Positions 42,583 through 46,155 of a stretch of 64,000 nt of DNA are shown in pieces. Numbering within the stretch: position 1 is the stretch's first letter; each line of letters starts with the position of its first letter. Both the position numbers and the translations under genes were made by a program. Source of the stretch: Alphaproteobacteria bacterium (GTDB lineage Bacteria; Myxococcota_A; UBA796; GCA-2862545); NCBI GenBank assembly GCA_020632925.1, contig JACKER010000007.1, positions 52,910-116,909 on the forward strand, written 5' to 3'. The notes below the pieces were generated by a model. The model did no database searches. It saw only the letters and a program-made list of their open reading frames with translations, and had not been told where the DNA came from.

Positions 42583-45500
42583 TCAGGCGGGGTCGTCCGA
42601 CACGGGGAGATCCCGGATCGCTCCCGTCGCCGTCTCCACCACCCGCAGCCGATGGTGGTTGGTGTCCGCGACCACGAGGTACCCGTCGAGCCGCGCGACC
42701 CCGCCGGGCTCGGCGAACGTCCCCGGCCCGCCGCACACCGTCCGCGTCTGCCCGCTGTCCAGCGCGATCGCGCGCAGCTTGTGGTTGAACGTGTCCGCCA
42801 CGATCACCTCGCTGCCCACGATGGTCATGCCGAGCGGGTGCTGCAGGCGCGCGCGGTCCGCCGGACCGTCGATGTCGCCGAAGTCGAACAGCCCGCGCCC
42901 CACCACGGTCAGCGTCTGGTGCGACTGGAGGTCCACCGCGCGGATCGAGCTGGTCTCCGCGTCCGCGAACAGCAGGTACCGCCCGAGCAGCGCGAGACCC
43001 GAGGGCTGCGCGAGCGCGGACGCCGCTGCCGGGCCGTCCACGTGGTCCTCGCGACCCGAGCCCGCGAAGATCCCGAGGTGGCCCACGCCATACACCCAGA
43101 TCTGGTGGTTGCCGGCCATCGCGATGAACACGAGCAGCGTGTCTCGGTGCGCCATGACCTCCACGTCCCACGGGGAGCGCAGGTCCACCTCGGTCGGGTG
43201 GCGCAGCGCCTCGCGCGAGGGGGCCCGCCGGCCCTTGCGGCCCGTGCCCGCCAGCGTCGTCACCGTGCCGTCGCGCAGGTCGACCGCCCTCAGGGCGTGG
43301 TTGCCGGTGTCCGCGACGTAGAGCCGGTCGCCGTGTCGCCGCAGACCCTGCGGATCCCGGAAGCGTGCGATCCGCGGCGCGCCGTCCTCGAGGCCCGGAT
43401 CGCCGCTGCCGAACGTGCGCAGGTGCCGCGCGACCGGCCAGCCGTCGGGGCCGCGGTGGAAGGACAGCTCGAGGATCCGGTGGTGACCGGTGTCCGCGAC
43501 GTACATCCGCCCGATCCGCCACACGTCGCGCCCGAGCTCCTGGTCGAACGCGTCCGGCCAGACGTGGACCTTGCCCGGGAAGCGCAGGTCGCCGCCCTCG
43601 TCCCGCGGGAGGTGGGGCAGGGGAGCGCGCTCGGCGAGGCGGCCCTCGGCCCGACCCTCCTCGAGCAGCGCGTCGACCACGCGGCACAGCTCGTCGGCCT
43701 CGATCTCGCCCGGCTGCTGCAGCGCGATGCGACCCTCCGTGTCGACGACGACCACCGTCGGCCAGCTGCGGACGACGTACTCCTCCCAGATCGCGTGGAC
43801 GGGGTCGTGCACCACCGGGTGCCGCACGTCGTGACGCTGCATCGCGCGCCGCACGTTCTCCGCGAGCTCCTCGGTCGGGAACTTGGCGCAGTGCACACCG
43901 ATCACCGCGACCGGCTGGTCGGCGTACCGGCGCTCGACCTCGGCCAGCACCGGCAGCACGTGCTGGCAGTTCACGCAGCAGTACGTCCAGAAGTCGATGA
44001 TCACGACGTGACCGCGCAGGCGCTCGAGCGTCAGCGGCACGTCGGTGCCGATCCAGGCCTCGGGGGCGTCGGGCAGCTCGGGCGCACGGACGCGGGCGTG
44101 CTTGGGCGGTGAGGGCGGGGCCTCGGCGGCGGCGCGCTCGTCGAGCTGGCGCCCGAAGGCCTCCGGGTCCTGCACGGGCAGCCGGCAGGTCCGCCCCTCG
44201 CAGACGTAGGCGGTGGCACGCCCGCCGAGAGCCTCCTTGCCCTGCAGCCAGGGGAGCTCGGCGTCGGTGCCCGGGGGTGCGATGACCGCGAAGGGCAGCA
44301 CGCGGCGGCGCAGCTCGGCCATCAGCGCGCGGGTGTCCTCGGCCGCCGGATCCCCGACCACCGCGACCTCCATGCCGCCCTGCGCCAGCCACGCTCCGGC
44401 CAACGCCTCGGCCCCGAGCGCGCGCGGGGCCCGCTGGAGCCAGGTCTGCGACTGGCGCACGAGGCGGTCCGCGACGGCGCCGAGATCCGGGCGGTCGCAC
44501 AGGCGGTCGAGGCGGACGAAGGCCAGCGAGGTCACGCCGCCCGCACCCGGCTCGGCCGACCCGATCCCGCAGAGCGTGCGGTGCAGCGGCGCCGGCTGGT
44601 CGACGCCCGACAGGTGCAGCCCGCCGGTCTCGGCGTCCCAGAACAGCCGCACGAGCTCGTCCGCGATGCGCTGCGCCGACACGAGCCACCGCGCTTCGCC
44701 CGTCGCCTCGTAGACGTCGATCAGCGCCAGGCAGAGGTTCGCGTGATCGTCGGCGAAGGCGGGGACCCGAGCCACGCCGCCCTTGACCGTGCGGTGCAGG
44801 CGCCCGTCGACGACCGCCTGCGCGAGCACCACCTCCGCGCAGCGAGCGGCCACCCCGACCAGCGAGGTGTCGTCCAGCGCGCGACCGGCGCGGGCGAAGG
44901 CGCTGATCGCGAGCGCGTTCCAGGCCACGATCGCCTTGTCGTCGCGCGCGGGCCGCGGCCGACTGTCGCGGGCCTCGAGCCAGGCCGGGCGCACGCGCGC
45001 GAACAGCTCGCGGTCGGCCTCCCGCCAGTCCTCGAGCGGCCCATCGGTGCGCAGCACGGAGCGACCGTGCTCGAAGTTGCCGGTCAGCGTGACCTCGAAG
45101 AGCGAGGCCAGGCGGCGGCCGTCCTGCTCGCCGAACAGCGCCGTCAGCTCCTCGGGGGTCCAGGTCGCGAAGGCGCCCTCGGCACCGGTCGGGTCGTCCG
45201 CGTCGAGGCTCGCGGCGAACAGGCCGCTGTCGAGCAGCATCTCCCGCTGCATCCACGCGAGCGTGTCCCGCGCGACCCGACGGTGCTGCTCGCCGAGCCC
45301 GAGCACCCAGGCGTCGACGTAGACCGGGACGAGCTGAGCGCTGTCGTACAGCATCTTCTCGAAGTGCGGGACACGCCACTCGGCGTCGACCGAGTACCGG
45401 CAGAAGCCGCCGGCCAGGTGGTCGTACATCCCGCCGCGCGCCATCCCGTCGAGCGCCTTGGCGAGCACTTCGCGGGCCCGCTCGTCACCGGCGCGCGCCA

Positions 45501-46155
45501 CCCGCGCCACGAGCCCGGCCAGCGTGCCGTGCCCGGGGAACTTGGGGGCCGTGCCGAAGCCGCCGTTCGTGGGGTCCTCGTCGGAGACTGCGGCCTCCGT
45601 GACCGCCATCAGCCAGTCGCGCGAGATCACGTTCGCGGGTGCCGGGACCTCGGAGGTGCGCTGCAGGAGCTCGATGACCTCCTGCCCGACGCGCTCGGTG
45701 TCGTCGCGGCGCTTGCGCCAGGCGTCGGAGACGTGGAGCAGCACGTCCACGAGTCCCGGCGTGTCCCCCTTTCGCGTGGGCGGGAAGTACGTCCCACCGA
45801 AGAAGGGCCGCCCCTCCGGGTCCAGGAAGACCGTCATCGGCCAGCCGCCGCGCCCGTCGTTGAAGGCCTGCACCGCGCGCATGTAGACGTCGTCCACGTC
45901 GGGACGCTCCTCGCGGTCCACCTTGATGGCGACGAAGTGGCTGTTGATGCGCGCCGCCAGCGCCGGGTTGGCGAAGGACTCGTGCGCCATCACGTGGCAC
46001 CAGTGGCAGGACGAGTACCCGATGGAGAGCAGGATCGGGACCTCGCGGCGACGGGCCTCTGCGAAGGCCTCCTCGCCCCACGGGTACCAGTCGACGGGGT
46101 CCTCGGCGTGCTGCAGCAGGTAGGGGCTGGTCTCGCCGGAGAGTCGGTTGGGCAC
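42583..46155 (-). CDS. Fusion protein: thioredoxin-domain protein YyaL (DUF255) with six-hairpin glycosidase-like region, plus thioredoxin-like CxxC domain, plus NHL repeats.
   Basis: GTG at 46155 is preceded by AGGAG and gives [27 protein letters not shown]...SCHWCHVM, the DUF255 motif. The YyaL C-terminus ...[12 protein letters not shown] then continues in frame with no stop into [16 protein letters not shown] (a Trx-like CxxC). After that come NHL repeats ([40 protein letters not shown]). Confidence 0.8.

Follow-up and report, generated by a model that had tools for sequence, protein, structure and literature searches.

A YyaL/SPATA20-type protein fused to an NHLRC2/SOQ1-type thioredoxin-NHL module in a single bacterial open reading frame

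YyaL and thioredoxin-NHL modules in one reading frame

The minus strand of a 64,000-nucleotide stretch of contig JACKER010000007.1 (assembly GCA_020632925.1; "the window" below means this whole stretch) carries an open reading frame (ORF) that joins a YyaL/SPATA20-type protein to a thioredoxin (Trx)-NHL module of the kind known from human NHLRC2 and plant SOQ1. An earlier note on this DNA had described a fused frame of 1,190 aa with a clean GTG start and an AGGAG ribosome-binding site, and translation, the position of the ribosome-binding site, and the starts of homologues bear this out. The frame ending at 42583 on the minus strand is open across 1,469 codons, and translation from 46155 yields 1,190 codons with no internal stop. 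The AGGAG (46165-46161) overlaps the TAG stop (46166-46164) of a co-directional gene upstream, and homologues begin at the same residue in the alignment (MPNRL/VPNRL). The GTG at 46155 is thus placed as the biologically sensible start. The two protein motifs that the note had quoted are present as well (a 12-residue motif at residues 649-660 and a 10-residue motif at 722-731), as are the NHL repeats. The gene and its parts are as follows.

42583-46155, minus strand: whole fusion ORF, 1,190 aa, GTG start at 46155-46153, TGA stop at 42585-42583
46161-46165, minus strand: AGGAG ribosome-binding site with a 5-nt spacer to the GTG, read from the sequence
45664-46149, minus strand: Trx-like domain 1 (Trx1), DUF255/Thioredox_DsbH, residues 3-164 (PF03190; PDB 3ira, 8e-56, and 7tkv, 3e-111)
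45997-46008, minus strand: CHWC redox motif of domain 1, C50/C53
44380-45618, minus strand: YyaL (α/α)6 helical barrel, about residues 180-592 (all-helical in the AlphaFold2 model at a predicted local distance difference test score [pLDDT] of >90; Foldseek match to 7tkv)
44128-44373, minus strand: YyaL C-terminal α/β subdomain, about residues 595-676 (AlphaFold2 model; alignment to the termini of stand-alone YyaL)
44185-44202, minus strand: invariant C-x4-C pair, C652/C657 in VCEGRTC (alignment)
44086-44127, minus strand: Pro/Ala-rich connector, about residues 677-690, from the YyaL C terminus to the N-terminal arm of Trx-NHL (alignment)
43636-44085, minus strand: Trx-like domain 2 (Trx2), Thioredoxin_8 or TlpA/ResA/DipZ-like, about residues 691-840 (Pfam and PDB matches)
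43966-43980, minus strand: CCVNC motif, C726/C727/C730, residues 726-730, the NHLRC2/SOQ1 CC(I/V)NC signature (sequence)
42601-43578, minus strand: six-bladed NHL β-propeller, about residues 860-1185 (24 β-strands, 6 x 4, in the AlphaFold2 model)

Residues 1 to about 676 constitute a complete member of the YyaL/DUF255/SPATA20 (SSP411) family, exemplified by Bab1_2064 of Brucella abortus (PDB 7TKV). The sequence match to that structure spans residues 3-540 (E = 3e-111), and Foldseek aligned 7tkv_A over 683 columns with a target TM-score of 0.90. PF03190 matched residues 3-164 with 239.7 bits (cut-off 27, E 1.9e-71). Of 83 fused homologues, 82 keep the CHWC motif of this domain, as do 164 of 166 stand-alone YyaL proteins. 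In the fused-family alignment, the barrel carries an invariant 19-residue motif together with DAD..EG and RDDK..WN motifs. The C-x4-C pair, found in 83/83 fused homologues and near-universal in stand-alone YyaL, lies in the [VL]C-x4-C-x2-P motif of the family (residues 651-660). Stand-alone YyaL proteins end about 10-20 residues past C-x4-C..P, whereas the window protein continues for about 510 residues more.

Published information on this family includes the expression of mouse Ssp411 in spermatids (PMC11784959), and our literature search on 7TKV returned a mention only in a methods preprint. DUF255 (PF03190) and YdiU/SelO (PF02696) are listed in a published analysis among its strongest negative phyletic couplings, a class of coupling that, according to the section heading of the same paper, arises between alternatives (PMC6822775); the coupling hints at a functional analogy. 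YyaL also has another recurrent C-terminal partner, an aldo/keto reductase (P0252, P0283, and P0341; 1171-1225 aa), and two further long YyaL proteins (P0281 and P0293) carry about 430-480 extra C-terminal residues with no Pfam match.

The C-terminal half begins beyond a linker region that, measured from P660 to W701, varies from 32 to 52 residues across homologues; an RVxAPxLP..W motif is common to the fused proteins and to the N termini of stand-alone Trx-NHL proteins. Pfam placed Thioredoxin_8, AhpC-TSA, and Redoxin on residues 707-825, with Thioredoxin_8 (PF13905) at 57.7 bits. The best sequence match of this half is the lumenal Trx-NHL-C-terminal domain (CTD) portion of Arabidopsis SOQ1 (7DJJ/7DJK; 7djj E = 1.6e-84, residues 691-1130), followed by human NHLRC2, the protein of FINCA disease (6GC1/6G7W; 6gc1 E = 2.9e-73, residues 690-1185). 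Mycobacterium tuberculosis DipZ matched Trx2 through its C-terminal Trx domain (2HYX/5CYY; 2hyx 8.5e-21), and ResA-type proteins matched at 1e-6 to 1e-9. The top NCBIfam match of Trx2 is the ResA subfamily (NF002854) at 54 bits, below its cut-off of 170. Reading Trx2 as a peroxiredoxin was judged unsupported: AhpC/TSA (PF00578) scored 40.4 bits (cut-off 26), lower than Thioredoxin_8, and the domain is of the CxxC TlpA/ResA/DipZ type, with thiol-disulfide reductases as its best PDB and NCBIfam relatives.

The window protein shares with NHLRC2 a Trx_8-type domain bearing CC(I/V)NC, as the motif is defined in PMC6107167, packed on a six-bladed NHL propeller. The propeller gave an NHL Pfam match of E 6.8e-16 and Foldseek target TM-scores of 0.82 to 6g7w, 0.80 to 6gc1 (Trx and NHL domains together, root-mean-square deviation 2.5 Å), and 0.87 to 7djk (again both domains together, with a CCINC-type Trx in SOQ1). 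Unlike NHLRC2, the window protein has no C-terminal β-stranded domain, as in the bacterial group of PMC6107167, and it has a whole YyaL at its N terminus. The modeled chain ends 5 residues past the last blade and the SOQ1 alignment stops before the CTD, so that an NHLRC2/SOQ1-type CTD with its Cys pair is absent. The module therefore belongs to the CTD-less bacterial group of PMC6107167 and not to the full NHLRC2/SOQ1 architecture. SOQ1 itself, which acts in the thylakoid lumen, additionally contains an N-terminal HAD (haloacid dehalogenase) domain, a transmembrane helix, and a CTD that has methionine sulfoxide reductase (Msr) activity; HAD domain (Pfam), transmembrane segment, and CTD are all absent from the window protein. 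Homologues of NHLRC2 were previously sorted into three domain architectures that do not include YyaL-Trx-NHL (PMC6107167, Biterova et al.), and the present protein is a fourth. In two giant proteins from the search of 50% representatives described below, P0260 (3648 aa) and P0303 (4013 aa), 32 NHL-propeller-like stretches apiece were matched separately.

AlphaFold2 modeled the whole chain from an 83-sequence alignment with a mean pLDDT of 93.7 and a predicted TM-score (pTM) of 0.85, an indirect sign of a fixed domain arrangement; low confidence affects no segment, not even the connector. No signal peptide or transmembrane segment was found, the maximum 19-residue Kyte-Doolittle hydropathy being 1.66, within a barrel helix. 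We accordingly rejected a secreted or periplasmic localization; as predicted from sequence, the product is a soluble, cytoplasmic, single-chain protein. DipZ/DsbD and ResA/TlpA proteins, in contrast, are extracytoplasmic and membrane anchored, and a CcdA/DsbD membrane domain supplies them.

The fused family and the decay of its second Trx site

To place the fusion among its relatives, we searched 5.8 billion proteins clustered at 90% identity and, separately, 1.84 billion representatives at 50% identity. The first search recovered the orthologous fusions for which the earlier note had suggested looking: 82 full-length homologue clusters (1089-1272 aa) that are 41-75% identical to the query at 98-100% query coverage and have the same Pfam architecture. 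They derive from NCBI, JGI, ENA, and Logan assemblies, carry the labels Myxococcota, Alphaproteobacteria, or Pseudomonadota, and bear generic database names such as "DUF255 domain-containing protein" and "YyaL/thiol-disulfide isomerase." At 50% clustering, about 9 fused representatives were present among >10,000 strong matches. The fusion is thus rare, yet well established in its clade. The note's further statement that the halves occur separately in many organisms also holds, with stand-alone YyaL proteins of about 670-700 aa and stand-alone Trx-NHL proteins of about 483 aa.

These data bear on whether the fusion is an artifact, produced when a sequencing frameshift or a missed stop merged adjacent yyaL and trx-NHL genes. 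Two observations could be read that way: the identical NCBI protein, P0001, is only partial (1020 aa), leaving the exact full-length gene without an independent deposit, and one relative, L084, is annotated as two genes. However, the G+C content at third codon positions (GC3) is 0.92-0.98 in each 150-nt window over residues 501-876, and this continuity across the junction in a single frame indicates that no frameshift is hidden there. The same continuous architecture recurs in 82 independent full-length clusters, which therefore exclude, for practical purposes, the frameshift or missed-stop alternative. The division of L084 reflects a tandem duplication of about 270 nt within Trx2, with no stop at the junction. 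We consider an artifact scarcely credible and the fusion almost certainly genuine. It is ancient within its clade, with every domain under purifying selection.

P0001, a [quoted passage not shown] from a 54.9-kb contig, is the sole 100%-identical database entry; it lacks the N-terminal DUF255 domain, and its taxon label conflicts with the Myxococcota labels of relatives. In L084, the duplication lies at the start of Trx2 (L084:1376-1750), and the gene caller reports two proteins there, one of them P0131. We rejected L084 as a clean two-gene split, since the duplication interrupts what is a fused gene; the interruption reflects either an assembly artifact or a pseudogene. Separate genes with a stop and a ribosome-binding site at the junction, which the note had named as the finding that would speak against a fusion, were seen in no close relative, L084 being the only apparent split.

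Within the fused family, the CxxC of Trx2 is kept in 67/83 members and lost in 16/83, including P0002, the closest full-length relative of the window protein. The members that lack it are:

P0002, P0014, P0015, P0018, P0040, P0062, P0065, P0068, P0071, P0073, P0076, P0078, P0080-P0082, and P0094

When Trx2 is left out of the neighbor-joining (NJ) tree, the losses map to about 7 separate branches. Identity to the window protein in Trx2 drops from 58% in CxxC-bearing members to 38% in those without the motif, whereas the other domains are unchanged (CxxC-less versus CxxC-bearing, Trx1 63 versus 61%, barrel 49 versus 50%, NHL 55 versus 57%). By comparison, CC[IV]NC occurs in 115/115 motif-bearing sequences among the 120 best, mostly stand-alone, matches to the C-terminal half (Fisher p = 3.6e-7, a test that overstates independence among related homologues). 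The retention of the propeller and of YyaL alongside a dead Trx2 suggests that the CHWC domain of YyaL can substitute for it.

A separate trx-NHL-yyaL gene pair and its probable selenocysteine form

A second association of the two modules was found in L007, a Dehalococcoidia metagenome-assembled genome in which trx-NHL is the gene immediately upstream of yyaL, an order opposite to that of the fused modules. Using the Trx-NHL protein of L007 as a query against metagenome contigs, we recovered 80 loci (L089-L168). Many encode a probable selenocysteine (Sec) form of the protein, described below, and the 54 Sec-form loci that extend at least 400 nt downstream were informative. In 39 of these 54, the gene immediately downstream of trx-NHL is a same-strand yyaL, separated from it by -8 to 192 nt, and in 3 further Sec-form loci yyaL lies within 1-3.3 kb. 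The cassette is:

L007:6001-9625 and 41 other loci among L089-L168: trx-NHL(Sec) followed by yyaL, same strand

The gene pair spans 47-94% identity in Trx-NHL, and in an all-against-all comparison of flanking ORFs, trx-NHL and yyaL were the only genes common to two divergent locus groups. An NJ tree of Trx-NHL joins the fused clade to stand-alone Cys forms and puts the operon clade on its other main branch; judged from these sequences, the fusion and the gene pair therefore look like independent associations. Fusion in one lineage and an adjacent pair in another constitute classical Rosetta-stone and gene-order evidence of joint action, and we regard functional coupling of the YyaL and Trx-NHL modules as likely.

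A looser arrangement would be a real fusion of two autonomous enzymes, tethered for co-expression with neither electron transfer nor a shared substrate. Each half does retain all the hallmarks of its stand-alone family, yyaL and trx-NHL are unlinked in most genomes, and YyaL is fused to unrelated partners too, e.g., aldo/keto reductase. Against mere tethering, the connector is short and confidently predicted within a chain of high whole-chain pTM, and the independent adjacent pair is the only conserved element of its loci in the other lineage. Repeated loss of the Trx2 site with an unchanged rate in the propeller would also be hard to explain if Trx2-NHL acted alone. We therefore hold simple tethering to be unlikely.

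The operon lineage is distinguished by a TGA that stands in frame in place of the second Cys codon of the CCINC motif (C-U-I-N-C; L007:6112-6114), with the protein reading through on both sides. The same TGA is present in 67/78 loci with a readable motif (L007 and 66 of L089-L168), and the remainder have TGC or TGT. At +21 to +39, TGA loci carry a hairpin with the consensus CUUCCGC-AGUU-GCGGAAG that is absent from Cys-form loci. Across 46 distinct hairpin sequences, 96.6% of cells are paired, and compensatory changes on both sides are seen at two of the seven pairs (C-G replaced by U-A in 11 sequences; U-A replaced by C-G or G-C in 7). None of 500 shuffles scored as well (0/500), and every slid register was far worse. 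The hairpin fits a bacterial selenocysteine insertion sequence (SECIS), and on this sequence evidence the operon-lineage Trx-NHL protein is probably a selenocysteine form of an NHLRC2-like protein. An NHL-containing selenoprotein is not mentioned in a 2026 review of bacterial selenoproteins or in the 2026 BSepDB database paper.

Sec/Cys pairs mark catalytic redox residues. The putative Sec at the active-site Cys of Trx2 thus argues that the Trx-NHL family comprises true redox enzymes, despite the negative insulin assay of NHLRC2 taken up below. It also bears on a further alternative, that the fusion protein is not primarily a redox enzyme and that the barrel modifies a carbohydrate or small molecule while NHL binds or scaffolds and the Trx folds are structural or regulatory. 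Consistent with this alternative, the barrel has a six-hairpin, epimerase/glycosidase-like fold with weak matches to GH127-type and sugar-epimerase folds (Foldseek rank 45), its invariant acidic/His motifs are typical of an active site, and the fusions of YyaL to aldo/keto reductases suggest chemistry on carbonyls or sugars; moreover, Trx2 can lose its CxxC, and NHLRC2 showed no classical oxidoreductase activity (PMC6107167). On the other side, CHWC and C-x4-C are near-invariant in both fused and stand-alone YyaL, the operon lineage has a putative selenocysteine at the Trx2 active site, and SOQ1's Trx-like domain is redox active. A primarily nonredox role consequently seems quite improbable.

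Genomic surroundings and functional reading

The fusion gene is preceded by a co-directional gene:

46164-47060, minus strand: upstream co-directional gene encoding 298 aa with a Pro/Thr-rich C-terminal tail, 8 nt from the fusion gene

The two genes are probably co-transcribed. Searches of Pfam, NCBIfam, and PDB with the 298-aa protein found no match. It shares 66% identity with the product of the gene at the same position in L083, and the gene is absent from L081, L082, L087, and L088. It is thus not a general partner of the fusion. Divergent from this operon is a small RRM (RNA recognition motif)-domain RNA-binding protein with a Gly/Arg-rich tail (window 47246-47563, plus strand). On the other side, about 660 nt without a convincing gene separate the fusion-gene stop from an ORF that resembles a lipoprotein and has an LLSC lipobox (41012-41905, plus strand), beyond which lies a Ser/Thr kinase gene (36845-39472, minus strand). 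The region 36845-42580 has a G+C content of 0.66-0.68 versus about 0.73 and a weaker GC3 bias. A type I polyketide synthase ORF (window 2-7150, plus strand) with two each of ketosynthase, acyltransferase, ketoreductase, and acyl carrier protein (KS-AT-KR-ACP) runs off the start of the window. The overall context is Myxococcota-like (type I polyketide synthase, Ser/Thr kinases, arylsulfotransferase, and a protein combining patatin and EF-hand). Promoter, terminator, Rfam, and tRNA scans returned nothing informative.

We favor, with moderate confidence, the reading that YyaL-Trx-NHL is a single-chain thiol-redox enzyme in which both modules act together. A complete YyaL/SPATA20-type protein and a complete CTD-less NHLRC2/SOQ1-type module would form one thiol-redox machine. 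In such a machine, reducing equivalents may pass between the Cys pairs CHWC, C-x4-C, and CC(V)NC, and the substrate may be held at the Trx2/NHL cleft, in the barrel, or in both. The closest precedent is SOQ1, whose Trx-like domain reduces a Cys pair of the CTD, which then reduces methionine sulfoxide in LCNP (bioRxiv 10.1101/2024.11.01.621559). By analogy, the most likely job of the fusion protein would be the reduction or repair of an oxidized protein or of another thiol- or sulfoxide-type substrate. Because bacterial Trx-NHL proteins are without a SOQ1-type CTD, we propose YyaL as their missing partner, in the role that the CTD plays in SOQ1. PilB-type Trx-MsrA-MsrB fusions offer an analogy only, in that a reductant Trx shares a chain with a repair enzyme that is recycled by Trx; they have no sequence or fold relationship to the window protein, from which MsrA/MsrB domains are absent (Pfam). 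Thiol-relay or repair chemistry as such is a tentative suggestion, which we would at present not put at even odds. The earlier note had suggested a partnership in redox or peroxide handling. The gene pair and the domain decay support the partnership, and the peroxide part finds no specific support, Trx2 being a TlpA/ResA/DipZ-like CxxC domain.

Several observations weigh against joint redox action of the two modules or limit its reach. Among the 50% representatives, fused proteins make up little of either parent family. Adjacency appears restricted by lineage: trx-NHL lay near yyaL in 1/80 GTDB yyaL loci (L007) among the matches listed, stand-alone Cys-type trx-NHL neighborhoods contained yyaL in 0/2 loci, and yyaL was near Cys-form trx-NHL in 0/11 loci (Fisher p = 1.5e-6 versus Sec-form loci). 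The loci, like the homologues, are phylogenetically related, and this test too overstates their independence. Beyond synteny with the closest relative, the neighborhoods of the fused genes have no conserved neighbors and thus give no functional hint. The pTM supports the modeled domain arrangement indirectly. Given its aldo/keto reductase fusions, YyaL may serve more than one partner as a general module; its bacterial role is described as "role unclear" (PMC7084401). Finally, NHLRC2 was inactive in an insulin-reduction assay (PMC6107167). The same study found no conserved neighbors of NHLRC2 homologues in 7 bacterial genomes, and our literature search for papers linking SPATA20/YyaL with NHLRC2/Trx-NHL found none.

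A broader proposal is that YyaL/SPATA20 and Trx-NHL (NHLRC2/SOQ1) are halves of one ancient thiol-redox system extending from bacteria to humans, with YyaL in a CTD-like role in bacteria that have no CTD (possibly via C-x4-C), SPATA20 as a so far unrecognized partner of NHLRC2 in animals, and the second Cys of CC(I/V)NC as the catalytic nucleophile, as the selenocysteine form of the operon lineage would then indicate. We consider this doubtful as it stands. If the coupling is local to these bacterial clades, the fusion would still represent a new domain architecture in which a redundant active site is decaying. In mammals NHLRC2 is essential, and it is mutated in FINCA disease (PMC6107167). 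Taken together, the fusion, the operon, and the position of Sec bring the function of two enigmatic families with links to disease within reach of experiment.

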